Shown piece after piece: positions 2,791-23,139 of a DNA stretch of 32,000 bases. Location: positions 3,330,001-3,362,000 of the forward strand of contig NZ_CP011041.1 of the NCBI RefSeq assembly GCF_002310835.1, in the 5' to 3' direction. Position 1 is the first letter of the stretch. Each line of letters begins with the position of its first letter. Both the position numbers and the translations under genes were made by a program. This DNA comes from Pseudoalteromonas tetraodonis (lineage in GTDB: Bacteria > Pseudomonadota > Gammaproteobacteria > Enterobacterales > Alteromonadaceae). Under the pieces are notes generated by a model. It did not search any database. It saw only the letters and a program-made list of their open reading frames with translations, and was not told where the DNA came from.

Positions 2791-3978
2791 TTAGTTCTTG
2801 CTAAGTTCTGCTTGTAACCTAGCTTTTGTTTCTTTTAAGTAATTTATATAAGGATATGAGTCATCTGCAATGACTAAAGCAGACTCCATCTGTTCAAGTG
2901 CTTGACGAGTATCACCTTGCATTTCATAGCCATAAGACAAGGCTGAAAGCGCATCGACTGATTTGGGGTGATTTTTTATATTGTATTTAAACACCTCAAT
3001 AGCACGGGTAAATTGCTTGCTGCCCGTTAGGTTATAACCGAGTGATCTAACAGCACGGTCTGGTGGAGATATCTGCTCACCCCATTGCTGAGATAATGTT
3101 TTGTAATAAGCATCAATAGAGGCTACATCGTCAGTTAAAGCACTTATAGGCATTTGTTTAGGTAAAAATAAGTTGTAATAGGCATTAAATACGCCAGCAG
3201 CAGCGGTTAAGTTATGCGAGATACCATCAAACGCATCACTAGAGAAGCGTAACCCTCGCACTTTATGCGATTGTATAGTTTGCTGCAATTCATCGTACCT
3301 TTCACGCATTATGCCGGCTTCTTCGCCAATATTGGTGTAAACGTAACTGTTAAGGTCTTTCGTTTTAGCTATAAACGATTTTGTACTTTTTACCATTGCG
3401 CCATAGTTCCACCAAACCGCAGGGCTATAAGCAATATGCGCTTGAAATAGTTCGGGCTTTGCCTGCAAAGCATACAACGCAAATACACCGCCCGCAGAGG
3501 CGCCAGCAATAACCTTATAGTCATGCGTGCGATAGTTTTTATTAACTAAAGGAATGAGCTCTTGTTCAAAGAACGCTAAAAACGCTGTAGCACCGCCCCC
3601 TTCACCAACTGGGCCCTGAGGTTCCTTGTTCACTGTAGGATACATATCTCTAAGTCGATTAGTGTTTTCGATAGCGACAATAATAACCTCAGGCGCACGA
3701 TTATCATTTTGTAAACGCTCAATAACAGCACTAGCAAGCGGTATATTAACCGCGCCATCTAAGCGATATATAACAGGATATACCTTATTTGGCTCAGCTT
3801 GATAACTCTTTGGTAACTGCACAACAACTGTGCGTTCTTCATTTAAAACAGTAGATTTAATAGTGTGCGTGTGCACAGAGTAATCTGTACTTTGCTGTTT
3901 AATGCCAGCTTGTGCAAATGCATTTTGTGAACTAAAAGCAAAAAAGCTAACAAAACAAATAACGGTTAATAAACGCAT
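2791..3978 (-). CDS. Secreted alpha/beta-hydrolase (putative esterase family) with a C-terminal TPR-like region
   Basis: 395 aa. N-terminal signal peptide (MRLLTVICFVSFFAFSSQNAFA). GxSxG nucleophile elbow (GASAGG). PVIYRLDG-type esterase N-terminal motif. TPR-like helical repeats in the last ~90 aa. Confidence 0.75.
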   Translation of the reverse strand: MRLLTVICFVSFFAFSSQNAFAQAGIKQQSTDYSVHTHTIKSTVLNEERTVVVQLPKSYQAEPNKVYPVIYRLDGAVNIPLASAVIERLQNDNRAPEVIIVAIENTNRLRDMYPTVNKEPQGPVGEGGGATAFLAFFEQELIPLVNKNYRTHDYKVIAGASAGGVFALYALQAKPELFQAHIAYSPAVWWNYGAMVKSTKSFIAKTKDLNSYVYTNIGEEAGIMRERYDELQQTIQSHKVRGLRFSSDAFDGISHNLTAAAGVFNAYYNLFLPKQMPISALTDDVASIDAYYKTLSQQWGEQISPPDRAVRSLGYNLTGSKQFTRAIEVFKYNIKNHPKSVDALSALSYGYEMQGDTRQALEQMESALVIADDSYPYINYLKETKARLQAELSKN

Positions 3979-4031: not shown

Positions 4032-4057
4032 AAAAAAAGCGCCTTAAGCGCTTTTTT
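4032..4057. terminator. Bidirectional rho-independent terminator (native glmS terminator, displaced by the transposon)
   Basis: AAAAAAA-GCGC-cttaa-GCGC-TTTTTT. If the transposon is removed, this hairpin lies ~40 nt downstream of the glmS stop on the minus strand. Confidence 0.6.
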
Positions 4058-4067
4058 AACATTAATC

Positions 4068-4072
4068 AAAAC
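4068..4072. repeat. 5-bp target-site duplication (AAAAC), glmS-distal copy
   Basis: AAAAC lies immediately outside the TGTGCACG terminus at 4073. An identical AAAAC lies immediately outside the other terminus (29239-29243). Confidence 0.85.
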
Positions 4073-4216
4073 TGTGCACGTTAAATAATGTTCGAAACTG
4101 AGATGCTCTATAAATGTATGATCTTAAATAGAAAGTACGATCCCAGCCAATTTAAAGTGTACGCTCCCAGTTTCTACTTCTTAAAGTTCGCTACTAGATA
4201 ACTTCGCAACTAAACA
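4073..4216 (+). repeat. glmS-distal transposon end with an array of TnsB-type binding repeats
   Basis: After the terminal TGT there are about five related ~20-mers sharing a core of ...AA(A/T)..GT(T/A)CG(C/A)(T/A)AC.... They are ttaaataatgttcgaaactg (4081), aaatagaaagtacgatccca (4126), atttaaagtgtacgctccca (4150), tcttaaagttcgctactaga (4179) and gataacttcgcaactaaaca (4197). The sites are spread over ~145 bp, which is spacing like Tn7-L. Confidence 0.75.
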
Positions 4217-4241
4217 AAATAGGTATTAATCACTTTTTAGC

Positions 4242-5750
4242 TTAACTATCCGGGTAAAAGCAGCTCAAAAACCTCGATGCAACCTCAGTTATGCGCACAT
4301 CATTCAGCCCAGATTTTCGAAGAACTAACCACCTTGGTAGTGACATGTCGTCGCTATTTTTTAATGTATAAGTTAATCTCCTAATTTGATAGTCAGATAC
4401 ATCTTCTGAATATCTTCGAAGAAACTCAGCGGTTAAAGAAAGTTTATTGAATTGCTTTTCAATTGATGTGCCTTTATCCAAATGGCTCAGGTACCATTTT
4501 TGAGATCTTCTTGGGCCTTCAAGGTCATACAAATACAAATCCCTAATTTCTACTAATTGGCGAATCAGCTGAACATCTCTTTTGTGCCAGTCAACTCGTG
4601 TATTAATGTATGGTATAGGCTGTTTATATCGAAGGTTAACTTTAAGTAGCCAACCTTTATCGTGCCTGTATAGCCAAGCATATATAGCAGCTCCATTACC
4701 TGTACGAGCAATTTTAGTTCCTCTGGTTTTAACCAAATTGTACCAATCTTTTTTATAGCCTTTTAACTCCCTATCAGTGTGAGTACAACCCTTATATGTT
4801 AGTTCTTTTCCTAATTGAATTAACTTTACGCACCTTAAAATTTCAATAATATTCGCAGATTCCCCTTTAAGTGCATAAATAAAAACTAAGTGCTCAAGAT
4901 AGCTGAATGACCTCCGGTGTTTTCTGGTAATGCAGTGTAGCCAACTAGATTCTGATTCACTCGGAACTAGATTCATGGCGCTAAGCCAAAACAAAGGCCA
5001 AGCTTTTAATATCGCTGATTTTATCTTTAGATAGTCGACATAATTACCCTTGCTCATACCAGCTTCGTTCACTAGTTGATGGTAGAAAGCCGTCCATTGG
5101 CTATAGCTTGCTGAAGTTTCAGATCCTTTCTCAAGCAAACCCATTACTTGATTAGCAAGCCAATAAAAACAATGAAACTCAGATATGGTGTTCATTTTAA
5201 TATCGTCGAGCGAGATAATTGATAAGGGTATATATTCATGTCGCTTAGATACTGAGTGATATGGCTGCACTGAAACTAACTTTGCTTTATGAACAAGGCA
5301 GTATTCAACTCCACTAATCTGGTGTACTCGCATCCAGTATGGCTCACCCAAAGTGTTTAATTGCTCGGAATAACATTTAGGACAACACCGAAGGTGATGT
5401 AACTTTGGAATTCTTGAGCAGGCATACCCAGAGCGTAAATGCACCGCTCCATATGATTTACCTTTCAAAAGTTCTAAACATTGTACTCGACGGTCTTCCG
5501 GCATGAATGGCGCATATAATGGAAATAGCGTGTTGTTATAAGTCAATTGTTCGCTTGAACGCAGGGTTAAAGAGTTTGTTACACTCAGAGCATTAAGTCT
5601 GGAAGGGAAGTTAATTGTCGATATTGCTGTTCGAGTATCCATTGCAAGGTCAATCAATCGCTTGGGACTGACCTCACAAAATTGCACTCTCGCTCTCGCT
5701 AAAATGCTGTATAACAGCTCATCTGGATAAGGTTTGGGGAAATTTATCAT
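4242..5750 (-). CDS. tnsD: TnsD/TniQ-family target-selection protein
   Basis: The N-terminus MINFPKPYPDELLYSILARA is the TniQ signature, and a CCCH zinc-finger pattern is present (CCPKCY...C..H). It is the last gene of the tns operon and the element sits at glmS. The ORF track starts at 5786. I prefer the ATG at 5750, which overlaps the tnsC stop by ~30 nt. Confidence 0.85.
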   Translation of the reverse strand: MINFPKPYPDELLYSILARARVQFCEVSPKRLIDLAMDTRTAISTINFPSRLNALSVTNSLTLRSSEQLTYNNTLFPLYAPFMPEDRRVQCLELLKGKSYGAVHLRSGYACSRIPKLHHLRCCPKCYSEQLNTLGEPYWMRVHQISGVEYCLVHKAKLVSVQPYHSVSKRHEYIPLSIISLDDIKMNTISEFHCFYWLANQVMGLLEKGSETSASYSQWTAFYHQLVNEAGMSKGNYVDYLKIKSAILKAWPLFWLSAMNLVPSESESSWLHCITRKHRRSFSYLEHLVFIYALKGESANIIEILRCVKLIQLGKELTYKGCTHTDRELKGYKKDWYNLVKTRGTKIARTGNGAAIYAWLYRHDKGWLLKVNLRYKQPIPYINTRVDWHKRDVQLIRQLVEIRDLYLYDLEGPRRSQKWYLSHLDKGTSIEKQFNKLSLTAEFLRRYSEDVSDYQIRRLTYTLKNSDDMSLPRWLVLRKSGLNDVRITEVASRFLSCFYPDS

Positions 5751-7167
5751 GAAGAGTGAAATCTCCAATTGGCAATACGAGTCCAACTTCCTTGAGCATT
5801 AAGTAATAATTGTCCTCTTTTTGTTGAGATGCTATGTAACGCAAATCATCTTCAGGCAGAGTCTTCCATTGTGATTTTGATATGCGGCTAAAGTCTTTTC
5901 GCTGCATGGATTCCAATTTAGGCATTTTACGACGCTTTGGCTTTGAAGCTGGCAGCGGCAGAGGTTTAGCTGATTTATCGCATCGCTTTTCACGAGCAAT
6001 GTCAGAGAAAAACGAACGGTGCTGGCTAAAGTACTTTTTCTGTACTCTCAACATTAACTCTTTAGAAATGCTTTCCATTCCCGTATTTATAGCCTCATGC
6101 AGGCATCGTGCATAAAAGCGCACTGCTATTCCAACAACACCTTTACATGCGTTAAACCATATTTCTTTAAGTTCTTTATTTAGCTCAATATCCTGCGCTT
6201 TCAAGCAGTTAAACTTCCAAAGCCTAGCTGTAAATCGAGACCAGCGATCAGATAGTTCTTCGTTTTCACTTGCGAAAGCACAAAGAGGATCCCAGGTAAG
6301 CTTTTCCGAACTTATTTCATTAATGTCATAACAATCAACATCACTCGAAAGCATAACAACAGGAATTATGTCAGCAAGACCAGCTAAGTGTTCAAATAAC
6401 AATTCTCGTTTATCGGTAGGCCAATTCTGAGTCGATTCTAATGAGTCAATGATCAAAGTTCCCACATTATAGGTTGTTAGAAGACTCCTCATTTTCATAA
6501 ATGCAGCGCATACACTAGGGGCCACCTTCACTTCTTCATCAAACTTGTCTCTTCCTAAAGCAAGCTCTAAGGCTTCAAGGAACCGGGCGCAATACTCAAA
6601 TAGATTGGAAGCCCCTTTCAACTCAACTTTTAAATACACGACTTGAACTTGAGAAAGCTTCCCATGCCAAACTACTTGCGGATAGAGTGACAAACAACGC
6701 TCAATTGCTGCCGTTTTACCACAGTTCTTCGGCCCTACAATGGCGGTAATCTCTCGGCGCTTTTGTATTGCTGTGTCGTCATGCCAAACATGGGGACTAC
6801 CGCCCATAGCTAACATTAGGTTATTAGATAAGACTCGACCTTTATTCCTAATAGGAGCCTTATTTTGATACCCGCTTTTTATCGTCAAGTCTAAGCGATC
6901 GTACAAATCAACAATCTCAGGCACTGAAACATAAAAACTATCAATTAAAGACTGAATACTACTTTTCCGCCGGCTATCTTTGTCTTCAGCTGTTGCCTTA
7001 ATAACTTGATCATTTTTAAAATGAGCCTTTAATGAGCCCATATCTAATGTATCCCTGAGCACATCCACAAATTGATTACCGGTTGTGTCATCAGTTGAAA
7101 TCGTATCTTCAGCTCGCCAAGCTTTTGGTGGTATCGTTTCAATAGGTAATGTCTGCTGTTTTTTCAT
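5719..7167 (-). CDS. tnsC: TnsC AAA+ transposition regulator
   Basis: 482 aa. Walker A is GPKNCGKT and a Walker-B-like LIIDS follows. It lies between tnsB and tnsD, and its start is 3 nt from the tnsB stop. Confidence 0.85.
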   Translation of the reverse strand: MKKQQTLPIETIPPKAWRAEDTISTDDTTGNQFVDVLRDTLDMGSLKAHFKNDQVIKATAEDKDSRRKSSIQSLIDSFYVSVPEIVDLYDRLDLTIKSGYQNKAPIRNKGRVLSNNLMLAMGGSPHVWHDDTAIQKRREITAIVGPKNCGKTAAIERCLSLYPQVVWHGKLSQVQVVYLKVELKGASNLFEYCARFLEALELALGRDKFDEEVKVAPSVCAAFMKMRSLLTTYNVGTLIIDSLESTQNWPTDKRELLFEHLAGLADIIPVVMLSSDVDCYDINEISSEKLTWDPLCAFASENEELSDRWSRFTARLWKFNCLKAQDIELNKELKEIWFNACKGVVGIAVRFYARCLHEAINTGMESISKELMLRVQKKYFSQHRSFFSDIAREKRCDKSAKPLPLPASKPKRRKMPKLESMQRKDFSRISKSQWKTLPEDDLRYIASQQKEDNYYLMLKEVGLVLPIGDFTLHDKFPQTLSR

Positions 7168-7169
7168 AA

Positions 7170-9290
7170 TTAGTCCTCATCATCCATGAAAATTTCGTTC
7201 AGTCGTGTATTTGCAATCACGACAGAAGTTTGCGAATCGTTGTTGGAAGGATTGCGTTCGTTTCTCGCTGACTCAGGCTTTACAGCACCGTAAATCGCTT
7301 TACTTTCATCCCTTTGAGCAGCTTTATCACCAAGTTTAGAAAGCTCTTCATTCATTGTTCGATTAGCTGACTTTGACTTCTTATCTTCTATAGCTGCACG
7401 CACTTCTTCCTTGTTTTTTAACTGTTGTTCAAGCGCATACAGCGTGTGATGGTGCATTGCGTCATTATTTGTGTCTTGAATTTCTTTGTACCTCAACTCT
7501 ACGTCACGCCAAGTTAGTCCTTCAAATCGTCTATAATGAACATACAGGAGACATTTAATATACTTAGTCTCTCCATTCTTTGGCACTAGGTAGATAGCAG
7601 AGGCGTCTGATTGATCAATAGCAACCTCCATTTTTTGCCTGTTGTTGTAAACCCTTTCTCGTAGACCTGGCGCATCAGGGATCTCAAATTGAAGATGTTT
7701 GTAAGTGAGAATATAACCTCTAGACACGCTCGCTTTATCTCTTTCAAGCAATGAATACCAGAAATACTCTGGATCAACAGAATGAAGCGGACCTGTCCTA
7801 TGAGCTATGCCCCAATTCCATTTCGAGTTTGGAGAGGTATCAAGATTGGTTGGATAGTCTGCGTCGACTTTTCCCACTCCCATCGTTTTAGAGTTAAGCA
7901 CCATGACAGTTCGCGCAATAATGCGGTTCAACTCACTTAGCAGCATTGTATATTCATCGGGCTTGTACTTACCGCCATGTTTTTTTGGTAAGTAATGCGA
8001 AATCAAACCAGGAAGTAGGTGGCTTATTTCCGCATAAACTCGACCAAAACTTCTTTCACCTTTACCTCTTTTTTCTGGCTGGGAGGCTCCGCTATTAATC
8101 ATAGCTATTCCATGCTCGACAGAAACAGAAGTGATTTTTTTACTTCGAAGGTCAGAACCTAAGTCCCCAAAAAAAGCTTTTGGCAAGCCCTGCATCGACC
8201 AGTCACTTGGCTCGATTTCCAAACCAAATTCTCGACATAATTCAACTTTATCCCTGACCGCAACAGTCATAGCGTTCATTGCATTGAAATACGATGGGGG
8301 CGTTAGTGTCAGCAAGAAGCCTACACAGCTAGAAGTATCGCTATCAATAACTTCATAGAGGGTCGGCCTACCCAGAGGGAATCGCTCTTCATCGGCCAAT
8401 CCTGCATCGAAAGGCGTCGCATCTATTTCATAAGAGTATCCAGGGCCAACTAAATTGGCACTGACTGCTGAAGTAAGCTTTCTAACGTTAGCATTGAAAT
8501 GTTTTTCACCAAATTTAGCTTTTGCTCGGGCTTCAGAGCTGAATTTGTGATAATAGAAAGCTTTGAATAAATCAAAGCTAGGTTTTTCATTTTCCAATTT
8601 ACGAACATCCCCATTGCACCAGCGCGCTAGAAAGTCATAATAAGCATCTTGTATTCTGTTTGTATTCTTGGGTTTACCCTTTTTATCAACAGTGTATTTA
8701 CCGCTGAAAATTGTGTACTTGATAGCAGTTTCCATCACTGATTCCATTTCAGGAGTAGACTGAGTTGAATCATAACTTCCGTGTTCTTTAGGTCGACCTA
8801 AGCGTTTTTCCCGTCTTGTTTTTTTCTTACCTTTACCACCACAGTTAGCATAATCAGGCAAAAGTGCATTGGGGGTTTGTCCGCGCTGCCAATATCGTCT
8901 GAGATAACGATAAATCGTACTTTTTGCACCGACACCCATTGCAACAAGTACTTTAATTAATTCAGCCCGCTGTTTTTTAATCCAATATTTAGAGCCACCA
9001 ATGACACCTTGGATTCGAGCAAGGTTACTATCACGTATTGCATGATAATCATGACCTACTTCATAGCTACGATTTACACTTTCTCGCCATGGATCCTCAA
9101 CATTGATAATCTGGTGTTGATCATCAATATTTTCGACTTGTTGTACAGTTAGCTGAAAAGGGAGAGCGTCATCTTTTTCAATATTAATGAAAATGGCAAA
9201 GTCACCAAAATCATCCAATAAACGGTACTTATGTCCGTCCCAGCTGTAAACATGATTGCGCGTCATAAAATCAAGCATGAAGCACCTCAT
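7170..9290 (-). CDS. tnsB: TnsB DDE (RNase H-fold) transposase
   Basis: 706 aa. N-terminal HTH region (KSTIYRYLRRYWQRGQTPNALLPDY). DDE-type core blocks are YEIDATPFD, FFGDLGSDL and GKGERSFGRV. It overlaps the tnsA stop. The exact start (M1, M5 or M9) is uncertain. Confidence 0.9.
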   Translation of the reverse strand: MRCFMLDFMTRNHVYSWDGHKYRLLDDFGDFAIFINIEKDDALPFQLTVQQVENIDDQHQIINVEDPWRESVNRSYEVGHDYHAIRDSNLARIQGVIGGSKYWIKKQRAELIKVLVAMGVGAKSTIYRYLRRYWQRGQTPNALLPDYANCGGKGKKKTRREKRLGRPKEHGSYDSTQSTPEMESVMETAIKYTIFSGKYTVDKKGKPKNTNRIQDAYYDFLARWCNGDVRKLENEKPSFDLFKAFYYHKFSSEARAKAKFGEKHFNANVRKLTSAVSANLVGPGYSYEIDATPFDAGLADEERFPLGRPTLYEVIDSDTSSCVGFLLTLTPPSYFNAMNAMTVAVRDKVELCREFGLEIEPSDWSMQGLPKAFFGDLGSDLRSKKITSVSVEHGIAMINSGASQPEKRGKGERSFGRVYAEISHLLPGLISHYLPKKHGGKYKPDEYTMLLSELNRIIARTVMVLNSKTMGVGKVDADYPTNLDTSPNSKWNWGIAHRTGPLHSVDPEYFWYSLLERDKASVSRGYILTYKHLQFEIPDAPGLRERVYNNRQKMEVAIDQSDASAIYLVPKNGETKYIKCLLYVHYRRFEGLTWRDVELRYKEIQDTNNDAMHHHTLYALEQQLKNKEEVRAAIEDKKSKSANRTMNEELSKLGDKAAQRDESKAIYGAVKPESARNERNPSNNDSQTSVVIANTRLNEIFMDDED

Positions 9291-10104
9291 TTACAACTTG
9301 AATGTCAGCTCCCCTTAGGTCAAAGAAGTCTCTGTCAAATTTCAAAAAGAAAGCACCAAGCTGCACGAGTTGCTTAAACCTGTAAAGGTAGGTGCCATCC
9401 TGACCCCCTTTTTCTTCATCAAGAGCAACAAGTAAATTATGAATTCGTTCGTCTGGGTTGCTGAGAAAAACGTTCTCAATTGTGGCAACATGAGAGTAAA
9501 GCTCATCAACATCACAATCATCTAGGTTCGCGCCAATTATCCACTCCAGAGTACGGTGGGTTTTCCTACAAATTTGTTCTTCCGTAACCACATACAACGG
9601 AATGCCAAGTCGAGCCAACGAAGCTCGTTCTAATTGAAGCTTTTCAATCGTCCGCCATCCTTTTAAATCTTGTACGTATTTTACATAAACACCAAACATT
9701 TCATGTTCAGGACCGTCAAGCGTAACAACAAAATCGGTTGTTAGAGGCTTTTTCTCTGGCTCGTACTGTGGCGAGTGGTTAATCCCTAAATCATGGGCTA
9801 GCTTCAACGTGGTTTTTAGGTCATGTGGGTACTGAGATTGAATGTCGACCACTTGAGGATCCATATCCAAAATGATGAACACCATATATTCAAGTAAAGA
9901 CAGTGTATGTTCAATGCGCCCAGTTGTGCGACTTTTAACTCGTCGCATTTGACCCTTTGAAGAAACCGTGTGCACAGTAGCACCAGGCTGATAATCTTTG
10001 TCTGGAACATAAGCTTCTTCGACAATTTCATTTAACTTAAGACTCATTTGAGCCTCGCCACTCATATTCGTGGTACTTAACATCGTCAACATCCTTATCA
10101 ACAT
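9271..10104 (-). CDS. tnsA: TnsA endonuclease-type transposase subunit
   Basis: TnsA pattern: TGRIEHTLSLLEYMVFIILDMDPQVVDIQSQYP (catalytic E block), LTTDFVV (D) and VYVKY (K). This is followed by IPLYVVTEEQI and a C-terminal wHTH-like part. The true start may be the ATG at 10047 (MSLKLNE..., preceded by GAGG) rather than 10104. Confidence 0.85.
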   Translation of the reverse strand: MLIRMLTMLSTTNMSGEAQMSLKLNEIVEEAYVPDKDYQPGATVHTVSSKGQMRRVKSRTTGRIEHTLSLLEYMVFIILDMDPQVVDIQSQYPHDLKTTLKLAHDLGINHSPQYEPEKKPLTTDFVVTLDGPEHEMFGVYVKYVQDLKGWRTIEKLQLERASLARLGIPLYVVTEEQICRKTHRTLEWIIGANLDDCDVDELYSHVATIENVFLSNPDERIHNLLVALDEEKGGQDGTYLYRFKQLVQLGAFFLKFDRDFFDLRGADIQVVNEVLHA

Positions 10105-10374
10105 AAGACTCTTTGAGGCACCATCCTGATGCCCATAGGTACACGTAAATTTTAACAGATTTTGACCATCCTGATTTTAACTTATTGTTTTTTAATTATT
10201 TAATTTAATATAACCAAGTTAAAAACAAACTTTTTAAGTTGTTTTTTGTTGTTTATGAAGGAGATGGAGAAAATGAAAAAAAATAAAATTTTTTCTTCGT
10301 GGCTGAAGGTTTATATAGTTTTTAGCTGATTGAGTTAGTCTTATCCAGACTAATTGCTAGTGGGATATAACGCG

Positions 10375-10713
10375 TTAGTCACAATGTGTGTCATCAAACT
10401 TACACTGAATACGCAACCAGAAGTCGTGAGGCATGCCAGTAGTATCTCCAAGTTTTTTGGCGAAGTCTAAGTTAACACTCACCTTTCCTTGTAGAAATTT
10501 GTTGAAAAAGTTTTCGGTAATGCCTAAGCGATTAATTATATCTTCTCTACTAACACCATTACTCTTGAGTAAAAATAAATGGGCGAAATACACAGATGGA
10601 TGGAGCGAGCCTTTGTGATGAGGAACAACAACGAAACCCTCCTGAGTAAAATCATCAAGAGATAATACGCCCTCAACTAAAGCATCAATGTCTAATCGTT
10701 CATCATTTTTCAA
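10375..10713 (-). CDS. XRE-family HTH protein, HigA/VapI antidote-like (orphan)
   Basis: 112 aa. HPSVYFAHLFLLKSNGVSREDIINRLGITENFFNKFLQGKVSVNLDFAKKLGDTTGMPHDFWLRIQ matches the HigA-type HTH pattern (HPG..L.e.fL...g.s...lA..lgv....is.i..Gkr.it.d.A..L...fG.s..fWlnlQ). No HigB-like ORF lies next to it. Confidence 0.7.
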   Translation of the reverse strand: MKNDERLDIDALVEGVLSLDDFTQEGFVVVPHHKGSLHPSVYFAHLFLLKSNGVSREDIINRLGITENFFNKFLQGKVSVNLDFAKKLGDTTGMPHDFWLRIQCKFDDTHCD

Positions 10714-10867
10714 AATTGTTCCTCAGACTGTACTTTAGCATTTTAAATCTGGATTGCTTTTTTGTGTAAAAAGCGAATGTCGCTCCATATAAATGTCTAT
10801 TGACACTGACGGCCTTCTTTATCATTTATCTCTATTAATAGTTACCCTCCTATTGTAGTATTTAAAT

Positions 10868-11000
10868 TAGCCCACATGCAGATTTGTTGGTTGCGCTTCG
10901 CAACCTGTGACAACATTGTCCAAGTGACTCGCCTTCTCGGATTGCTTCATAGGCTTTCCCGAATTACTCGCTCGCGGCGCGTAAGAGTGCATGTGAGCTA
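10868..11000 (+). ncRNA. Predicted retron msr-msd non-coding RNA
   Basis: A 13-nt inverted repeat has arms TAGCCCACATGCA (10868-10880) and TGCATGTGAGCTA (10988-11000), pairing at 12/13 positions (a1/a2-type). The repeat brackets 107 nt and ends 32 nt upstream of the RT start. A G at 10881 directly follows the 5' arm and is the candidate branching G. There is a perfect 7-bp hairpin GGTTGCG-ctt-CGCAACC (10889-10905) and an imperfect extended hairpin at about 10923-10968 (candidate msd stem). Confidence 0.6.
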
Positions 11001-11032
11001 CTTTTCTAAGAAAAAATATATTAGGGAATAAT

Positions 11033-12793
11033 TTGATTCATAGAAGAAACTATTTGCTGCTTAAGCAGGCTAAAACCAAATCTGAGTTAGCCTCAATACT
11101 AGGCGTTTCAGCTGCTTTTCTTACTAAAACTTTGTATAAACCAGGCGTTCAGTCGCACGTAAATTCGCATTATCACCAATTTGATATTACTAAAAAGTCT
11201 GGTGGTGTCAGAACTATCAGTGCACCATCAGCTGAATTAAAAGACCTACAACGCAAATTGTCAGATTTACTGTTGGATTGTAAAACGGTCATTCAGCTTG
11301 ACAACAAGATTGAATGCAGTCTTTCTCATGGCTTTGAGCGAGAAAAATCCATTATTACTAACGCACGTATACATCGTGGAAAAAAGAATGTATTAAATTT
11401 AGATCTAGCGGATTTTTTTGGTAGCTTCAATTTTGGTAGAGTTCGGGGGTACTTCATTGCCAACAAGGATTTCAAGTTAGATCCCCATATTGCAACAGTT
11501 ATTGCTCAGATCGCTTGCTATAAAGATACCCTGCCTCAAGGTAGCCCATGCTCTCCAGTAATAGCAAATCTAATAACTAACAGTCTCGATGTGAAATTAT
11601 CAAAGTTAGCTAAAAGAAATGGCTGTTCTTATACCAGGTATGCCGATGATATTACTTTTTCAACCAGAAAAAAGAGCTTTCCCGCTGCCATAGTTAGCGA
11701 CATTGAAAATTTAACATTAGGTTCAAAGCTATTAGGTGAAATAAGGCGAGCTGGATTTTCCGTAAACCCCAAAAAAACTAGGCTACAATTTAAAGATTCA
11801 AGGCAAGAGGCTACGGGCCTAGTTGTAAACAAAAAAGTAAGTGTTAAATCAGAATATTGGCGTCTGACCAGAGCAATGGCCCACTTTCTATTTAAAACTG
11901 GAAAATTTCAAGTTGCCGAACAAGATGGCTCCTTTAGAGATGGGAATATTTCGGAGTTAGAAGGCAGGTTAACTTTTATCGACTCTATCGATTTTTATAA
12001 TAACTTAGAGAAAAAGAAGCACCCGGAACCCAAATTTGAACCAAAGATCCACTCTGGACTCAACAAATTCAAAGGCAAATTAAACTCACGAGAAAAAGTG
12101 TATGGTAGATTTCTCCAATACAAACATTTTTTTGCGAATGAATACCCAACAATTTTGACTGAAGGTAAAACAGATAACGTTTACTTAAAAAGTGCTTTAA
12201 GTCGCCTTCAAGCTGTTTACCCTAATTTAGTAACCCCAAAATCAGCTACCGCAGCTTACTCACCCAAACTAAAGTTTCCCGAATTGAATCGTAAAACAAT
12301 GTATTTACTCGATATAGGTGATGGTGCGACACCATTTGTTAGATTTGTTCAAAGATATGCCGATGAGTTAAAGAGCTTTGAAAAGAAGAAAGCTAAAAAT
12401 CCTGTAATTCTAGTGTTGGATAATGATACAGGCCCTAATGACTTATTGAACCATTTAGTGAAGAACGTTAAATCATGCCCTAACGATAAAGCCACATTAA
12501 AGAGCGGTGGCTTTATTCATTTATTCCATAATTTGTATCTTATTTTGACACCTCTCAATGCTGGAGGAAAAGATTCAGCAATGGAAGATCTATTTGACGA
12601 TGCAACACTTGGTCGTACTATCAATGGAAAAACTTTTTCAGCGGCTAAACACTTTGATGAAACCAAACACTTCGGCAAACATATCTTTTCAACTAAAGTA
12701 GTGCGGTCAGGTAAAGCAAATATCAATTTTGATAAGTTTAAGTATATTTTTGATGAAATTGAGAAAGTTAAGCAACATTTTTCAAAATTATGA
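11033..12793 (+). CDS. Retron reverse transcriptase fused to a C-terminal Toprim domain (Retron-Eco2/Ec67 type)
   Basis: 586 aa with a TTG start preceded by AGGGA. RT motifs are NLDLADFFGSFNFGRVRGYF, LPQGSPCSPVIANL and the catalytic YADD (nt 11639-11650). The C-terminal Toprim signature is TEGKTD (Glu at 12161-12163) and LDNDTG (DxD). The Ec67 retron RT is likewise a 586-aa RT with a C-terminal extension. Confidence 0.9.
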   Translation: MIHRRNYLLLKQAKTKSELASILGVSAAFLTKTLYKPGVQSHVNSHYHQFDITKKSGGVRTISAPSAELKDLQRKLSDLLLDCKTVIQLDNKIECSLSHGFEREKSIITNARIHRGKKNVLNLDLADFFGSFNFGRVRGYFIANKDFKLDPHIATVIAQIACYKDTLPQGSPCSPVIANLITNSLDVKLSKLAKRNGCSYTRYADDITFSTRKKSFPAAIVSDIENLTLGSKLLGEIRRAGFSVNPKKTRLQFKDSRQEATGLVVNKKVSVKSEYWRLTRAMAHFLFKTGKFQVAEQDGSFRDGNISELEGRLTFIDSIDFYNNLEKKKHPEPKFEPKIHSGLNKFKGKLNSREKVYGRFLQYKHFFANEYPTILTEGKTDNVYLKSALSRLQAVYPNLVTPKSATAAYSPKLKFPELNRKTMYLLDIGDGATPFVRFVQRYADELKSFEKKKAKNPVILVLDNDTGPNDLLNHLVKNVKSCPNDKATLKSGGFIHLFHNLYLILTPLNAGGKDSAMEDLFDDATLGRTINGKTFSAAKHFDETKHFGKHIFSTKVVRSGKANINFDKFKYIFDEIEKVKQHFSKL

Positions 12794-13073
12794 CTCGAAG
12801 AGTCAATTTCAACCTACTATTTAAATCATCTCAATGTCTCATAAAAGCCTAGTTTAAATTCATACATTCTCAGCCAGTCAAATCATGTAAAAGATTTAGC
12901 CAAGTCTATACCTTGTCGGTGCAATAATTGACCTTTATTATTTATCTAGAGCTAGATGCCGTCAAAAAATCTAATGTCAATTTCCGCAAAAATAGTCATT
13001 TTAAATAGATCTTACAAATCAAACTCCACTAGGGCGATGTAAAGTTTTCCCAACTTCAAAAGTAGGGGAAACT

Positions 13074-14261
13074 ATGAATTCACAAAAAAATAAAAATTTT
13101 ATTAGCGCGGCTTTACTCTTGGCGATCACGCAGGTTGTTGGCTGCACATCTGAAAGTGACGTTCAAAAGAGCGTTAACAACACTGGTAAATCAGATGCCA
13201 CAGATAACAAAATTTCTGGAAGTTTTAAAAGTGCGTATGACACAGGTGTGTTTTACTCTACAGAGATGATGCCTTCATCTCAGGTGTATGGAAGAAAAGC
13301 TAACGGGTGCACTCAACAGTACAACGATCACTACTTTGAAACTGCAAATGCTCTGGTATATGGTAATCCAGAATTACCTAGCAGCGACTATGAGAGAGTT
13401 GCTAGCTGGGTAGAAGAGAATTTTGATTCTGCCTTAAGTGCGATGCAAGTAACTAAAGGTGAGTATTTTTCAAATCGATACGCAATTCGTCTCGATGGCT
13501 TAAAGTATATCAGAAATAATCTTGCCTATAAGCAGTATGACTCAGTTTCATATCCATCAGAGTTTGATAATTGGAATTACGAACAACAGGTTGATTGGGC
13601 GACTAAAACAACAAAAAACATGGATACAGCTCAAGCTGTTGGACTGTTAGTTAATGATCCATATTCACCTTTCCAAACGGAATCAGAAGCTGTTTTGGAA
13701 GATAAACTCTACGTTTGTATCCATGAAACAACCTCAACGAATGGCTGGGGTGAAGGCAATTTGGTCGGAATTAATGTAGGTGCCCCGTCTATTGCTGTAC
13801 CACATGAAGTAGACAAAATCGTAAAGCACGAAATTATTCACACAATTCAATATGCGTTAACGGGCAATTTCGAAGGATTAGGATTACCAAGATGGTTTAG
13901 TGAAGGTCAGGCCGTCTCGCTGAGCGGCATGAACGTGGCTCATAAATCACAACACAGTGAATATGATCCAACGCTTGTTGTTTACTACAACGATGAAATT
14001 GGCGACCAAGCCACTGCCTATAGCCATTACGGCCTTGCCTATCAATACTTGAAAGATACTAACGGACAATCTTCAATTATCAGTTTTATGAAAGATGTGA
14101 AACAAGTCACGTATGATTTTTCTAAGCAACTGAACTCCCCACTAGAAGAGTATCACGGCTACGTTGAAGCCTTTGATAAAAGCATGAAGCAATTCAACGG
14201 TGCCCCACTATCTGTAGAGCAATACCGTTACGACTATCATTCATTACTAACTGACTATTAA
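13074..14261 (+). CDS. Lipoprotein, gluzincin (peptidase MA-like) metallopeptidase
   Basis: 395 aa. Signal peptide with lipobox (LLLAITQVVG|C). HEIIH zinc motif (nt 13827-13841) followed ~25 aa later by WFSEGQA, the HExxH...EGxA arrangement of MA-clan peptidases. Confidence 0.7.
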   Translation: MNSQKNKNFISAALLLAITQVVGCTSESDVQKSVNNTGKSDATDNKISGSFKSAYDTGVFYSTEMMPSSQVYGRKANGCTQQYNDHYFETANALVYGNPELPSSDYERVASWVEENFDSALSAMQVTKGEYFSNRYAIRLDGLKYIRNNLAYKQYDSVSYPSEFDNWNYEQQVDWATKTTKNMDTAQAVGLLVNDPYSPFQTESEAVLEDKLYVCIHETTSTNGWGEGNLVGINVGAPSIAVPHEVDKIVKHEIIHTIQYALTGNFEGLGLPRWFSEGQAVSLSGMNVAHKSQHSEYDPTLVVYYNDEIGDQATAYSHYGLAYQYLKDTNGQSSIISFMKDVKQVTYDFSKQLNSPLEEYHGYVEAFDKSMKQFNGAPLSVEQYRYDYHSLLTDY

Positions 14262-14287
14262 GCCAACAAGTTTAAAAGGTATCTATC

Positions 14288-14533
14288 ATGACAATTGACT
14301 CAAAAGTGATAATTCTAGAACACGCAGGCTTTGATATTTATGGCAAAAATTTAAATGCGCTAGAACACGTTATAGAGCTTAAAAAATTCATACAGGATAA
14401 GTATCCGAAAATAGCTGAGCTAAACGGCTTCGAAAACTCTTTCAATGAGTTTCCGTATGACTTCCTAGGAAATGTTCAAGCTGTTTCAGACCTTGCTGAT
14501 CAGCATCTAGGCTTTCTTGTTGTTGCAATGTAG
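14288..14533 (+). CDS. Hypothetical protein (81 aa)
   Basis: ORF lying 26 nt after the peptidase gene, co-oriented and tightly packed with its neighbours. No motif recognised. Confidence 0.4.
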   Translation: MTIDSKVIILEHAGFDIYGKNLNALEHVIELKKFIQDKYPKIAELNGFENSFNEFPYDFLGNVQAVSDLADQHLGFLVVAM

Positions 14534-14543
14534 AGATAGAAAA

Positions 14544-15302
14544 ATGAAATTAGCTATTTTTTCAGATATTCATAATGAATTTGGTGTTTGGCACCCTCCT
14601 AAACTAGATGCCGACGTGGTCATTCTGGCTGGTGATATACACTCCAAGCACCGCGGTGCTCAATGGGCTACTGAGTCCTTTGATGTACCCGTAATCTATG
14701 TACCGGGCAACCATGAATACTATGGTTCTAATATTGACTCTGTAAATAAGAAGCTTAAAGAACAGGTAGAAAACTCACATGTTCATGTACTGCTAAATGA
14801 GAATATCAATATCGGTGGAGTCAATTTTATTGGCTCAACCTTGTGGACTGATTTCAAACTGTTTGGAGAAAAAAAACAGCGTGAGTGCTCGTTTTATGCT
14901 GGTTCAAGAATCAATGACTATGAGCGTATTCGACTCAATGACAATGGTAAGTACCGCAAATTGAGAACTGCCGATACTCAAGGTTTTTTCGATAATTCAG
15001 TTAGCTTTATTGAAAAAACGCTAGCTAAAAATACCAACAACAAAACGGTGATCGTTACTCATCATGCACCGTCTGATAGATCAACACCGCAGCAGTACAA
15101 AGATGATTTACTGTCAGCCTCGTTTTCATCAAACCTTGAGAAACTTCTAGCGCAATATGACATTAACCTATGGGTACATGGGCACACACATCATAATGTC
15201 GATTACATGCTCTCTGGAACCCGAGTCGTTTCTAACCAGCGAGGTTATGCCAAGGTTGAAGAAAATACTTCATTTTGTGAAACATACACCATAGAGGTTT
15301 AA
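14544..15302 (+). CDS. Calcineurin-like metallophosphoesterase
   Basis: Motifs are MKLAIFSDIH (DxH), LAGDIH (GD), GNHEYY (GNHE), VTHHAP and GHTHH. I use the ATG at 14544 (MKLAIF...) rather than the track start at 14517. Confidence 0.8.
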   Translation: MKLAIFSDIHNEFGVWHPPKLDADVVILAGDIHSKHRGAQWATESFDVPVIYVPGNHEYYGSNIDSVNKKLKEQVENSHVHVLLNENINIGGVNFIGSTLWTDFKLFGEKKQRECSFYAGSRINDYERIRLNDNGKYRKLRTADTQGFFDNSVSFIEKTLAKNTNNKTVIVTHHAPSDRSTPQQYKDDLLSASFSSNLEKLLAQYDINLWVHGHTHHNVDYMLSGTRVVSNQRGYAKVEENTSFCETYTIEV

Positions 15303-15305
15303 TTT

Positions 15306-15593
15306 ATGAACATAAATTCGGACGAAATAGAAATTACCACTTGTGCCTCTCCTTACGATCCACCAATTGGCGCTCACGTAGGGGTTAGAATAAGGCATTT
15401 GAAGTTAAACATTGAAGTAACAAGCACAGACCAGAAATCGCAGCATAAAAATCATATGGTAGCGACGGAAAATCTTAAGTCAGAGTTAGCTAAATTTGAA
15501 CTCGTCAAATCTCGCTTTGAGGATATAGATGAGGATGATTTAATAGATGGTGAAACATTTTGGCGTGAGCTTAACTCCGGAAAATATGATTAA
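15306..15593 (+). CDS. Release-factor (RF-1/PTH domain)-like small protein lacking the GGQ motif
   Basis: 95 aa, starting 3 nt after the phosphoesterase stop. VRIRHLKLNIEVTSTDQKSQHKNHMVATENLKSEL aligns with class-I release factor domain 3 (..AVRITHIPTGIV.QCQ.DRSQHKNK..A...L.A.L). SQHKN lies at nt 15438-15452. The position of GGQHVN reads PPIGAHVG. Confidence 0.6.
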   Translation: MNINSDEIEITTCASPYDPPIGAHVGVRIRHLKLNIEVTSTDQKSQHKNHMVATENLKSELAKFELVKSRFEDIDEDDLIDGETFWRELNSGKYD

Positions 15594-15674
15594 AAACCTG
15601 AAAAAAATTTGATTCTTACAAGTTAAACTGAAGCTGCCTATGCGAGTATTTCGTCATCAATTTGGAGACGTAAT

Positions 15675-16349
15675 ATGAAAACAGTAATTAAAGCAAATAA
15701 TCAATACACAGCGAAGGTTATTGGTAATCACTTTGGGCTTGAATCACACGTAGTGAACAGCCTATTGATGAGTGTTGGCTACATTACAAAAGCGGCAGAA
15801 GGACATGGTTATTACTTAACAGAACTAGGCTTTAATAAAGGTGGCGAGCAGATCAGTGACACGATTAAGAATATCTCATCGGTAAGATGGCCAGAACCTA
15901 TTCTTAATGATCAGTTATTAATGTCAGCCATCGTTAACGTTAAAAATTCAGCAAAAAACGTTAAGGCCCCTACAGCAGGCGATACTACACTCGATTTCAG
16001 GAAAAAATACCCTGCCAATATCCGTACAACAGACGGACACTATGTAAGGTCAAAAGCCGAAGCATTAATTGATGACTTTTTATTTAACAACGGCATCGTA
16101 CATGCTTACGAGAAAAAGCTGCCTGTTAAGGAAGATTTATTTTGTGATTTCTATTTGCCTCAAGGCAAAGTATGGATTGAGTATTGGGGCTATGAAAACA
16201 AGCCGGAATATTTAGATAGAAAGAAGAAAAAACAGGCAATCTACAAAAAATATGGTGTCAATTTAATTGAGTTAACCGATATGGATATTCAGAACTTAGA
16301 TGACGTGTTGCCTCAAAAACTATTAGCGTTTGGTATCCAACTTTTTTAG
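15675..16349 (+). CDS. Hypothetical protein with a C-terminal PD-(D/E)xK (restriction-endonuclease-like) fold motif
   Basis: 224 aa. The C-terminal half reads RSKAEALIDDFLFNNGIVHAYEKKL...CDFYLPQGKVWIEYWG...YLDRKKKKQAIYKKYGVNLIELT. This is the S.E..i...L...gi.y.yE ... DFyl.....iEy.G ... K...Y pattern of nuclease domains attached to some helicases and restriction enzymes. The assignment rests on motifs only. Confidence 0.5.
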   Translation: MKTVIKANNQYTAKVIGNHFGLESHVVNSLLMSVGYITKAAEGHGYYLTELGFNKGGEQISDTIKNISSVRWPEPILNDQLLMSAIVNVKNSAKNVKAPTAGDTTLDFRKKYPANIRTTDGHYVRSKAEALIDDFLFNNGIVHAYEKKLPVKEDLFCDFYLPQGKVWIEYWGYENKPEYLDRKKKKQAIYKKYGVNLIELTDMDIQNLDDVLPQKLLAFGIQLF

Positions 16350-16387
16350 GCTGAGCACAATATTAATGTATAAGAGGAGAGTTTATA

Positions 16388-16791
16388 TGAGTAACGAAAA
16401 AGTCAGTGCGTGCGAGTTAACACAATTACCTGAAGAAGAACAAATTAAACTGATTAAAGCTTGGTTTTTAAAGTACTTTCATTGCCCAAGTGAAACTTGT
16501 TTTAGAGATGATGATACTGGCGGCTGGGTCTTTTTTAGTGGCCCTTGGGAGCAAGCCTCTGTATTAGAAAAGTATTTTGGCGAATATGTAGACCAGAACA
16601 TTATCAATCGCATTTCAGAAGAACTAAATGATCACGCCAGTGAATGGAATTCCGAATATGAAGCTCATGAAATCGATGATTTTTTATTGCCAATTGATTT
16701 AACGGTAAATAAAGCAACTCCAAAGATAGACACGCTATTAACTGCTGATTGCGTCATCAGCGAGTTCCTTGAACCAGAGGACGTTTTTTAA
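16388..16791 (+). CDS. Hypothetical acidic protein (134 aa)
   Basis: The ATG at 16388 is preceded by a strong SD (AGGAGAG). The track's upstream TTG extension (16330) overlaps the previous gene and is less likely. No motif recognised. Confidence 0.45.
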
Positions 16792-16927
16792 GGCTGTACT
16801 TTAACATTATTAACCTCATACAAAACACAAGGGCACACAGATCAATATTTTACAAAATAAAACATTCATCCAAAATGAATGTGGAAATGACTTTGTTATA
16901 GGTGACATCCACGGTAACTTAGATGCC

Positions 16928-17527
16928 TTGTTTGCATTATTGGAAAATGACTCGTTTAATTTCGACCACGATAGGCTATTCGCATTAGGTGATATCATAG
17001 ACAGAGGCGATAACTCCGAGGGATGTTTAGCTTTATTAAATGAGCCTTGGTTCTTTTCAGTGCTTGGCAATCATGAGGCCATGTTTTTAGAGTTATGTGA
17101 AAATGATAACTCTACATTATTGAATAAGAATATTGGTAATCAATGGCTGGAAAAATGGCTTAAACAAAAAGACCAATTAGTGCAATGGGCGCATGCTATT
17201 CAGCACAAAATGCCATTAACCATAACATTGGATTTCCATGGCTTCACAATAGGGCTTGTTCATGCAAAAGCACCAGAGCGCTGGCCAACACAAGCTGAAA
17301 AACGAGTATCATTAGCACAGCATAATGAAGAAATCTGGGATAGAACAGAATTTTATAACCGAACAGGGTTAACACCTTATCGAGGTACCGACATAGCCCT
17401 AATGGGGCATAACCCGGTTAGAAAGGTGACCTTACACGGAAACCGTATTTGGTTGGATACCCACCATACCTCTGGCCACCTCTCAATCGTCAAAGTAAGC
17501 CAGTTAGTAGAATTATTTAGGAAGTAG
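16928..17527 (+). CDS. PPP-family (lambda phosphatase/PrpA-PrpB-like) Ser/Thr protein phosphatase; the 5' end is problematic
   Basis: Motifs are GDIIDRGD (from 16988), GNHE (17066-17077), GLVHA and MGHNP. Catalytic motif I, GDIHGN, is encoded in the same frame at 16901-16918, upstream of the first ATG/GTG/TTG (16928). The frame is open back to 16814 but holds no canonical start codon. The stop is 1 nt before the kinase gene start. Confidence 0.7.
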   Translation: MFALLENDSFNFDHDRLFALGDIIDRGDNSEGCLALLNEPWFFSVLGNHEAMFLELCENDNSTLLNKNIGNQWLEKWLKQKDQLVQWAHAIQHKMPLTITLDFHGFTIGLVHAKAPERWPTQAEKRVSLAQHNEEIWDRTEFYNRTGLTPYRGTDIALMGHNPVRKVTLHGNRIWLDTHHTSGHLSIVKVSQLVELFRK

Positions 17528-17528
17528 T

Positions 17529-20500
17529 ATGAGCAGCAGTCAATTTAGTCAAAGTGAACTTGAGCTTCAAAAAGGATTTATAGAAAAGGCCAAAAGGGTT
17601 TTTGAGGTCATCAAAAGCGTTGCGCGATTTAAAACTTCTGACTCTGATGTAACTGCTAATGAGCTAAAAAATACATACGCTTATCTGTGCCAAGAATATA
17701 ATACTTATATAGCCTATCAACAAAACTGTTTACAGCTTTGTGATTTTATTTTGAAGTGGCTATGTGAGCCCGAGCAGTTTCAACAAGAGTTCAACTCGAA
17801 AGACGTTAAAGTCGATAGCTTTTTAAATAACGTTAAGGTAAATGGGCAGTATTTAAAAGCTGAGATCTACAATTTTATGGCGCTGTTGGAAACAGAAAAC
17901 GTTGGGGGCACCAAGTCGACACATAACTGGTCTCAACAAGTTAGAGTGCTTGAAAGGCACAGTAGTGACTTTAAATTATTCCTTGCTGATAAGCACTTAC
18001 ATGCTTTCCCCGATCTAATTGAATTAGACCGCAATGTATTGTTGTTAGGTTTTTTACGTTACTGTATTAATGATGGTCGCACAATTTTAGAAGAAAGCTT
18101 TCATCATTCAGTGAACAATGATGATGCAGAGCGGCCCGACCGTTTCAGTAAAATTTTGACGGCAAAACACTGGAGGGAGTCTTTTTCCAATAATAAAAAG
18201 TTGTTCAATAGACTCATTTTACGGGTTTGCGGTCTGCACCAAATAGAGTTTGCCTCACTTAAAAATTCCCGATTGAAATTCTTCGCCAAATTAGATGCAT
18301 TGGATAATGACTTAACCGCTTTTATGAACGACTTCTCTGACATCCTGGGCATTCGTTACTATCAAGATAAATTAAAAATCGACTCCGATGACATCGTTTG
18401 GAATTGGTTTAAGAAGGAAAAATTTTTAGATTTACTTGGCTTATTTGAAAAAGAGAAAGTCTACCTGCAACTAATTGAATTGGAACCGGAAAGTTCAGAT
18501 TTTTTACCTCTGGAAAAACAAGCGCTGGGGACAAGGTTAGGCTTGCCATTCAAGTCAGATGAAATTGACCAGGAAAAGTTGTGGATGATCGTTGGTGAGC
18601 CAAACACCGCTTACTTAAGAGTGCTAATTGATTTAGCAAGGCTCGCGGACAATTTTGATGAATTTAAAATGTTAGTGGTAAAGGAATTTGAGCCAACGTT
18701 CACAATTTCAACGAAGGAAAATAAAACAACCAAATTTGAGGAAAAAGCAAAAGAGTTAAAGCAAAAAGCTTTGGAGCAACTGCTTAAACCTTCAATGGAA
18801 ATGGGAGAAGGTAATTATAATAAAACGCAGTTATCTCAATCCTTCTTTCAACTGTTTGGCAAGTCAAAAAAACAACGCTCAAGTTTTGTTAATTTGTATA
18901 TAAAATACGTGGATCAAACCTATTGTTTGGACAGCGACAGATATCAAGCCAAAGCCTTTCCAGGCAAGAGTGATTTAAAAATTTTATTAAACGAAGTAGA
19001 CGAGGTGTCTTTTTCCAATAGTCACTTTGCTGAATGTTTCAGCGGCTATTTAGCAATCAACTCTCAAATGGGAGCCGTTGTCCGAGACTTGCACGATTAC
19101 ATCGAACGAGACAACCAGTCATTGTTAATCAAGCATTCGCTAGACGCCATGATGGAAAGCTTTAATCAGCCAGGTAATGCGACTAAGACCCTAACGGAAA
19201 TAATTAGTCTTATTGATGAGAAAGTTAGCAATGAAACTTTTTCTCAAAATGAAAACGAGGACGATTTTGTTTCATTTAAAGACTTATCAGGCTTTTCTAC
19301 AGAGCACACAAATTTTATCCCCTCTGACACTACTTTCGTTGTTGTTTATCGCTTAAATGTTTTATTGCGATTGATGATTAACACGGCAATTTCTGAAGAA
19401 ACTCCGTCTATTAACGCGCTAATTGAGCAAAGCTTGCAAGAAGAGTTTGAGTGTACTTACCGAGCTTGTTTTATCCGTCAGTCGATATTCGAAGAATTAA
19501 GCGCTAAAAATAGAAAAAAGGCGTTACAAGGTTATCGCACTTATCGAGATCAACAAATTGAGCTTGCTAAGATTTATGTCACTGTGAAACTCGCCATTAG
19601 TGGCAAGCCAGACACTGATCGGGCTTTACTAGATGCGACTAAATCATTAGCCAAAACCTATTTTAAAACCACAGGAAAACCTAATGATGTAAAGGCATTA
19701 ACTAAAATGCTGGATAAGGAGGATAATGTTAAAAAGATATTTGGCGAACCATTTTCACGCATTCAAATCCACCTTGAACAGCTCCTTTATTTGTTAGAGG
19801 AGAACGGTTCTGTTTTATCATCTGACTTCTTAACTAAAGAGTCTTTGGGGAAATTATTCGACCCAGGAAGTGATGACATTGATAGTCTCAAATATTTGCT
19901 GTTTTCATCCAACGTGATTGAATCTGTATGGAATGAATTAGTCACCATTGATGACGATTTATTCTTCGCTGTTTTAGTTTCGAGAATGTTAGATAAAACG
20001 TCTCCAAAAATTTCTGAACGAAATAATGTTCCTCACTATTTCTCGGGTTCACACAAAAACAGCATTTTAAAACAAATTACAAATTTCGATTATGAAAGCC
20101 TGCTTTTTCCCGCAACTGACGAACAACACGAAGTATTGAATACGAAGTTAGACACGCTTAAGAAGCTTCGAAAATTTAATGACGAGCGATTTGAAATTCA
20201 AAATATAAACCCTAATTTATCGGAAAAACTTGGAACTGGGGCCTTTGGTGTTGTTTATCTATGCAGAGACAAATTATTACAGACCGATGTAGCAATAAAG
20301 CTTATTCCTACTTGGGGTGACGATGAACGGATTAAAAAAAAGCTAATATCAGAAGCAGCTATAATGAGGCAATGCCAAGGCGAACACGTAGTTACAGTGT
20401 TTGACTTACATAAGTTCAATACCCGTCACTTTGAGTTCAATAATGGCTGCGTGGAAAGTGAAATCCAACGTCTTAATGATGACACAGTTTTTGGTATCGT

Positions 20501-22217: not shown

Positions 22218-22298
22218 GTCGACGTGATTTTTAATTTGTTACAAACCAAACTGCAATAACTATTGATTTAATGATGCCCAACAACCAGGAGTTGGTGG

Positions 22299-23087: not shown

Positions 23088-23139
23088 CTCGCTGGCCACA
23101 CACTAGACACCAAAATTAACTTAAAAAGGATAATATTTT

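Follow-up and report, generated by a model that had tools for sequence, protein, structure and literature searches.

The window analysed here, a 32,000-nucleotide stretch of Pseudoalteromonas tetraodonis (contig NZ_CP011041.1, positions 3,330,001 to 3,362,000), contains a Tn7-like element that forms a single unit of ~25 kb (4073-29238) downstream of glmS and carries its cargo between the glmS-proximal end and tnsA. We consider it highly probable that this element is a single, apparently intact transposon encoding TnsABCD without TnsE, inserted at the glmS site and belonging to a clade characterized by a right-end cargo position, with a cargo bay whose contents can be exchanged. A previous sequence-only reading of this DNA had proposed either a lineage tolerant of cargo lying between the right end and tnsA, or the fusion of two tandem attTn7 insertions, and had suggested comparing cargo position across homologous elements. 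That comparison bears out the first proposal and identifies the layout as a lineage trait: every informative relative within the same clade shares it, with cargo located upstream of tnsA. The compared sequences indicate that right-end cargo is the rule in this transposon lineage, constituting a layout variant and not an accident of rearrangement.

Ends, genes and layout of the element

The element is delimited by the 26-mer TGTGCACGTTAAATAATGTTCGAAAC, which occurs in the window as two exact inverted copies (4073-4098 on the + strand and 29213-29238 on the - strand, with 0 mismatches) and had 0 matches in shuffled sequence. Both copies are flanked externally by the same 5-mer, AAAAC (4068-4072 on the distal and 29239-29243 on the glmS-proximal side), read from the sequence as the 5-bp target-site duplication typical of Tn7-like elements. 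A weight matrix made from the window's subterminal end repeats (consensus about TWTAAAGTWCGMWAC) confined strong TnsB-type sites (12–18 bits) to 4081-4210 and 29142-29230. The right, glmS-proximal end (29142-29238, - strand) consists of a terminal TGTGCACG and five contiguous TnsB-type repeats at offsets 9-97 from the terminus, scoring 14–17 bits at 29142-29230. The left, distal end (4073-4210, + strand), recognized through the inverted repeat and the weight matrix, combines the terminal TGTGCACG with five spaced repeats at offsets 9-26, 54-71, 78-95, 105-122 and 121-138, a spaced pattern that is also present in two relatives (loci L090 and L092). The inverted 5'-TGT...ACA-3' termini and the subterminal repeat arrays, asymmetric between the ends, are those of the Tn7-like family, and Tn7 itself has its sites spaced at the left end and packed at the right (PMC11406308). 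Because the two ends share a perfect 26-bp inverted repeat, are bounded by the AAAAC duplication and display R-like versus L-like spacing, we take them to form one transposition unit. The sequence-only reading had already described the spacing as L-like distally and R-like proximally, which stands, but had counted four proximal sites where there are five, and the interval it delimited (4073-10370) covers only the tns module of an element whose proximal terminus lies at 29238.

The tns operon is encoded on the minus strand and comprises tnsA (9271-10104; Pfam Tn7_TnsA-like_N, E = 9e-12), the DDE transposase gene tnsB (7170-9290), the AAA+ regulator gene tnsC (5719-7167; Pfam Tn7_TnsC_Int, TniB and AAA_22) and tnsD, encoding a TniQ-family target selector (4242-5786; Pfam TnsD, 4.5e-23, and TniQ, 7.8e-22), with tnsA overlapping the start of tnsB. 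TnsB returned no Pfam match in the local library and was matched instead to Tn7 TnsB (PDB 7PIK; E = 5e-77, residues 12-646); its residues D290, D376 and E412 correspond in the alignment to the Tn7 catalytic residues and do not vary among 21 clade sequences. The element hence holds the gene complement of the Tn7-like family, namely a TnsB-type DDE transposase, TnsA encoded next to tnsB, a TnsC AAA+ protein and a TniQ/TnsD selector. No tnsE or second TniQ domain was found by Pfam in any open reading frame (ORF) of the element, neither being defining for the wider family. In a subclade with 61% identity, an additional ORF of ~124 aa lies between tnsA and tnsB (9630-10004 in L002; ~952-1359 in L010), at a position where other clade members have the two genes overlapping.

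The attachment-site gene glmS (29260-31080, - strand; Pfam SIS and GATase_6/7) encodes a product sharing 96% identity with GlmS from Pseudoalteromonas arctica and from Pseudoalteromonas sp. P1-25, and its stop codon is 21 bp from the proximal terminus of the element. This short, fixed distance 3' of glmS, with the packed-site end proximal, is the one associated with TnsD and attTn7 and recurs in relatives L006, L011 and L091. The field gives the name right end to whichever terminus lies upstream of tns, at any distance (PMC11406308), and since in the window this end adjoins glmS, the orientation of the element relative to glmS is fully canonical. The internal layout departs from textbook Tn7: the tnsA start codon (ATG, 10104) lies 19,134 bp from the proximal terminus, with no TnsB-type site within 250 bp upstream of tnsA, and the tnsD stop codon is 169 bp from the distal terminus, with nothing carried beyond tnsD. 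These distances agree with the ~19 kb and ~170 bp reported in the sequence-only reading, which had also correctly described tns and glmS as co-directional, both being on the minus strand, and had placed the cargo in the intervening gap, mostly on the opposite strand to tns. We count 18 cargo ORFs, 17 of them on the + strand. Its description of the layout as non-canonical holds only relative to textbook Tn7: right-end cargo is also found in 17 of 93 distant glmS loci described below.

Searches for further transposon ends within the element were negative throughout. Allowing up to 3 mismatches, no additional copy of the terminal 26-mer occurs between the termini; the window-specific weight matrix revealed no cluster of repeat-like sites there, and a clade-wide matrix combined with cluster detection on the window and 14 loci located repeat clusters at element ends only. 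A scan of the 10105-10870 interval, which the sequence-only reading had suggested checking for degenerate internal ends, returned one 8.1-bit match, which is at background level (~25 such matches in shuffled windows). Pfam identified no tns remnants among the cargo ORFs. An inversion of an internal segment or of the whole element was rejected, as it would place tns antiparallel to glmS with tnsA at an end.

The G+C content of the window, ~39%, together with the GlmS identity, makes a Pseudoalteromonas host most likely. Outside the element, a DeoR-family regulator is encoded beside glmS (31127-31891, - strand). In the distal flank, ~2.5 kb of window sequence (292-2811) containing three ORFs without Pfam matches is absent at the corresponding position of L090 (16481-16581), a relative with 95% identity, and represents an indel in host DNA beside the element; the adjoining esterase gene (2791-3978) is common to both. 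Rfam and tRNA scans of the window were both empty.

Cargo position and turnover among related elements

TnsB homologues with at least 37% identity to the window protein constitute an isolated clade, with the next relatives at ~30%. We sampled 21 loci of this clade from genomes and metagenomes (TnsB 37–95% identical to the window), with hosts in Pseudoalteromonas, Thalassotalea and other Alteromonadaceae. Neither glmS nor an end array is found directly upstream of tnsA in any of the 21 loci or in the window, and cargo occupies this position in all of them. The distance from glmS or the right end to tnsA is 3.6 kb in L011 (Pseudoalteromonas sp. NBT06-2; TnsB 45%), 4.6 kb in L006 (Thalassotalea sp. 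Y01; 37%), 6.6 kb in L001 (88%), 6.8 kb in L091 (87%) and 19 kb in the window; in L002, L003, L008, L090 and L099 the upstream bay exceeds the ~9 kb of available sequence. Two of these elements could be delimited, L006 (4639-18734) with the duplication AAACG and L011 with GGAAA, and because the target duplications differ, L006, L011 and the window element represent independent insertions that share one plan. The interval from tnsD to the left end varies, being nil in the window and L090, 0.3 kb in L094, 1.6–2 kb in L011, L096 and L092, 3.5 kb in L006 and more than 7 kb in L001. The termini of L011, located using GGAAA as a guide, read 5'-TATA... and not 5'-TGT... (5541-5552 and 16800-16809), and those of L096 and L094 end in TGT; L011 may be an immobilized copy, or its terminus may have been mis-assigned.

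Comparison of close relatives reveals conserved backbones around unrelated cargo. Their right ends are 84–87% identical (87% between the window and L001) and their tns backbones 85–95% identical, while the genes in the right-end bay are unrelated: Hachiman and a retron in L001, a C5 methylase and a HEF_HK/receiver pair in L091, a type I restriction-modification system with DarTG (DarT/NADAR) and a UvrD-like helicase in L090, and a retron with ~16 kb of other genes, including a kinase cluster, in the window. On the proximal side, homology breaks just inside the terminator-like hairpin of the right end (~29107 in the window). On the tnsA side, it breaks at 10229 (versus L090), 10724 (versus L091 and L092) and 12883 (versus L001), that is, 125 bp to 2.8 kb upstream of tnsA. 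Judging by this turnover, the right-end bay appears to work as an exchangeable slot for anti-phage genes.

In the window, ORF calls and domain searches define a right-end cargo bay of 18 ORFs with defence-type genes (10375-29073, + strand). It includes an RT-Toprim fusion gene of retron Ec67 type (11033-12793; NCBIfam, 726 bits with the cut-off at 450; PADLOC RT-Toprim_I-C, 1e-217), a PDC-S69 candidate, a 1562-aa protein kinase with metallophosphatases on either side, an AAA ATPase and DEDDh exonucleases. The retron, of the Ec67/type I-C kind, spans 10860-12793; upstream of the RT-Toprim gene, at ~10870-11000, a region with the inverted repeats GCCCACATGCA ... TGCATGTGAGC resembles an msr-msd RNA gene and is a candidate for it, with no Rfam family matched. 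The 14517-22217 cluster contains two metallophosphatases, an RF-1-domain fragment protein, the PDC-S69 candidate and the 1562-aa Ser/Thr kinase-domain protein, which matches mad6-like and PD-T4-6-like entries, and may represent an uncharacterized defence system. Pfam detected no integrase, insertion sequence or recombinase genes in the cargo, and the search for dif-like or attC-like recombination sites between cargo modules returned, within 10105-29140, only short two-copy direct repeats without pattern.

To place the clade in a broader context, we compiled an outgroup of 93 loci with TnsB 28–33% identical to the window and with the 3' end of glmS visible upstream of tnsA. The arrangement is canonical in 76 of these distant loci, where no more than 400 bp separate the glmS stop codon from the tnsA start, and in the other 17 a gap of 0.5–8.8 kb separates the right end from tnsA. 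All eight exceptions that were inspected (L021, L026, L037, L042, L043, L066, L071 and L075) have three right-end repeats adjoining glmS. A single orphan repeat of the AATAAAGTTGCATAC type lies directly upstream of tnsA in six of them (L037, L042, L043, L066, L071 and, more weakly, L026) and was not seen in L021 or L075, the region inspected being ~9100-9170 in each locus. The location of this orphan repeat next to tnsA suggests that DNA went in between the outer repeats and the one nearest the promoter. Right-end cargo, as judged from these loci, is recurrent across lineages and not unique to the clade.

Regulation of tns and origin of the layout

In Tn7 and relatives, the innermost right-end site (site 4 in Tn7) overlaps the tnsA promoter, and its occupancy by TnsB represses the operon (PMC9308760). 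In 13 clade sequences (the window plus 12 loci), the 250 bp preceding tnsA yielded no TnsB-type site, with best scores of 2–8.5 bits, compared to 11–18 bits for genuine TnsB sites and to a median of 4.8 bits (90th percentile, 7.9 bits) for random 250-bp windows. A putative orphan TnsB operator upstream of tnsA in the window (GTTAAAATTTACGTGTAC), noticed by eye, was dropped because it did not exceed this random-window background. On these scores, the Tn7-type coupling of the innermost TnsB site to the tnsA promoter seems absent from the clade, in which case tns expression must be controlled in another way.

The conserved leader and promoter region of tnsA (10105-10229, - strand), bounded by position 10229, at which homology with L090, the 95% relative, stops, includes a covarying hairpin, GGGCATC-AGGAT-GGTGCCT (10116-10134, - strand). 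Of 15 clade sequences, 14 have it 24–45 nt ahead of the tnsA start (among them L001, L002, L003, L006, L008, L010, L011, L090, L091, L095, L096 and L099), with a conserved AGGAT loop and closing C-G pair on a stem of 5–7 bp. Stem sequences vary by subclade (GGGCATC/GATGCCT, AGAAC/GTTCT, GTGTC/GACAC, TCGCC/GGCGA and TCGTC/GACGA) through compensatory changes, with both sides altered in five of six pairs and 88% of cells paired. The covariation value of 0.76 compares with 0.25 in shuffles (0 of 500 reach 0.76), and all slid controls scored lower; stability alone is unremarkable (z = -0.6). This AGGAT-loop hairpin is a possible candidate for an alternative tns control. Also upstream of tnsA, a 112-aa ORF (10375-10713, - strand) gives a weak HigA/Xre-type helix-turn-helix signal (TIGR02607, 25 bits, below cut-off); it is kept in L001, L091 and L092 and absent from L090, which has an AlpA-like gene instead, and could be a regulator or just cargo.

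A second hairpin, terminator-like and followed by a U run, lies just inside the right end (29108-29141, - strand; fold -17.9 kcal/mol, z = -3.75). It escaped a simple consensus scan owing to one stem mismatch and was detected by folding; T runs on both of its sides make it potentially bidirectional. Equivalent hairpins are found in L006 (4740-4776) and L011 (~5649-5683), with z = -3.8 to -4.5 across the window, L006 and L011, and canonical outgroup elements have a terminator hairpin at the same place inside the right end. On the other side of the element, the likely native glmS terminator, AAAAAAGCGC-TTAAG-GCGCTTTTTT (4032-4058, - strand), was read from the sequence and is likely now cut off from glmS by the insertion. 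The right-end hairpin faces glmS and plausibly stops its read-through, replacing the displaced terminator.

These observations can be brought together in a model in which a clade of marine gammaproteobacterial elements has its main cargo position between a right-end module, formed by the repeats and the terminator hairpin, and the tnsA promoter, with the position between tnsD and the left end being optional and, in the window, empty. Close relatives keep the right end and the tns backbone around unrelated defence systems in the right-end bay. Tn7 transposition needs both ends in cis, and TnsABCD can act in trans, as in mini-Tn7 systems; since only the ends in cis and the Tns proteins are required, internal gene order is irrelevant to mobility. 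Tn7-type TnsB autoregulation would be absent, with tns under some other control for which the leader hairpin is a possible candidate. We advance more tentatively the specific proposal that the clade turned the interval between terminator and tnsA into a defence-gene bay exchanged by recombination, as its conserved flanks (glmS plus the right end at one border, the tns operon at the opposite one) would allow, and gave up TnsB autoregulation in favour of another control, possibly the leader hairpin.

Several points weigh against this interpretation. For several metagenomic relatives the right end lies beyond the fetched DNA, and those genes that lie upstream of tnsA are inferred to be cargo because no end array is present and their content is of defence type. 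A weight matrix can overlook a divergent operator. Finally, no explicit description of a cargo position between the right end and tnsA was found in open-access texts, including PMC8649781, PMC11014353, PMC9881144, PMC10293859, PMC11406308 and PMC9308760, a survey of text that did not extend to figures or closed-access articles.

With regard to how the layout arose, a possible but unfavoured account is an ancient, one-off event in the clade ancestor, either a tandem fusion or an insertion of foreign DNA into the space that separates the right-end repeats from the tnsA promoter, inherited ever since. This account concerns origin and is compatible with our explanation of the present element. The 17 distant elements with 0.5–8.8 kb inside their right-end repeats provide possible intermediates outside the clade, indicating that DNA can insert between these repeats and tnsA, but they also show that the layout arose more than once, and within the clade no trace of such an event is left that would distinguish fusion from plain cargo insertion. 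We deem it improbable that the element is an immobilized relic whose 19-kb block was gathered by ordinary host-island processes after movement ceased. The sharply different cargo of close relatives at the same locus does fit in situ exchange by homologous recombination better than transposition, yet the element has perfect terminal repeats, an intact duplication and four full-length tns ORFs with a conserved DDE triad, and the family is spread over Pseudoalteromonas, Thalassotalea and other Alteromonadaceae with different duplications. Hardly credible is a recent fusion of a distal, low-cargo tnsABCD element with a second, proximal one that lost the internal ends and one copy of the tns genes: the literature documents tandem attTn7 arrays (PMC8649781, with multiple ends; PMC11014353), and tandem insertion at one site would also leave identical 5-bp duplications at both outer ends, but no residual end array, terminal 26-mer or second tns remnant lies between the termini, and all clade relatives, with TnsB identities of 37–95%, follow the same plan, in further genera as well and with duplications of their own, so that no recent accident in this copy need be assumed.

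Comparison with known Tn7-like systems

Annotation pipelines and manual curation that look for the right end no more than a few hundred bp from tnsA would cut such elements short, missing up to ~20 kb of mobilized defence genes, or would wrongly call two elements. The layout variant is common in public data, and a large survey covering 6,549 delimited Tn7-like elements (PMC8649781) probably includes elements of this kind. According to reviews, the mechanisms of cargo capture are still unknown (PMC11406308); in this clade, comparison of relatives with 85–95% backbone identity places the boundaries of cargo exchange to the base pair. The known transposition mechanism, indifferent to internal gene order, is unchanged by these observations, but the layout raises a testable regulatory question; the clade offers a natural case of transposase-gene expression physically uncoupled from the right end, which bears on the self-limitation of Tn7-like elements.

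The window element resembles prototypic Tn7 from E. coli in its tnsA-tnsB-tnsC-tnsD order, TGT termini and 5-bp duplication, as well as in its insertion ~20 bp after the glmS stop codon, with a packed right end adjoining glmS, a spaced left end and tns co-directional with glmS. It differs from Tn7 in lacking tnsE, in having five sites per end instead of four (right) and three (left), in its cargo, of which 19 kb separate the right end from tnsA and none follows tnsD, and in the absence of a TnsB site over the tnsA promoter, where Tn7 has site 4 (PMC9308760). With canonical glmS-targeting elements (TnsB ~28–33%; e.g. L012 and L027) it shares gene set, insertion site, orientation and a right-end module of repeats followed by a terminator. 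Unlike the distant elements with right-end cargo, where an orphan repeat lies beside tnsA in six of the eight inspected, the clade of the window element has no such repeat. In type I-F3 CRISPR-associated transposons, such as Tn6677, transposition modules can sit far apart with cargo between them, an arrangement indicating that internal order is flexible in Tn7-like elements. The window element, unlike those of the Tn6677 type, has no cas genes or CRISPR array. In Tn6677-type elements tnsA still lies against the right end and TniQ-Cascade provides RNA-guided targeting; in the window, the right end and the complete tnsABCD operon stand apart.

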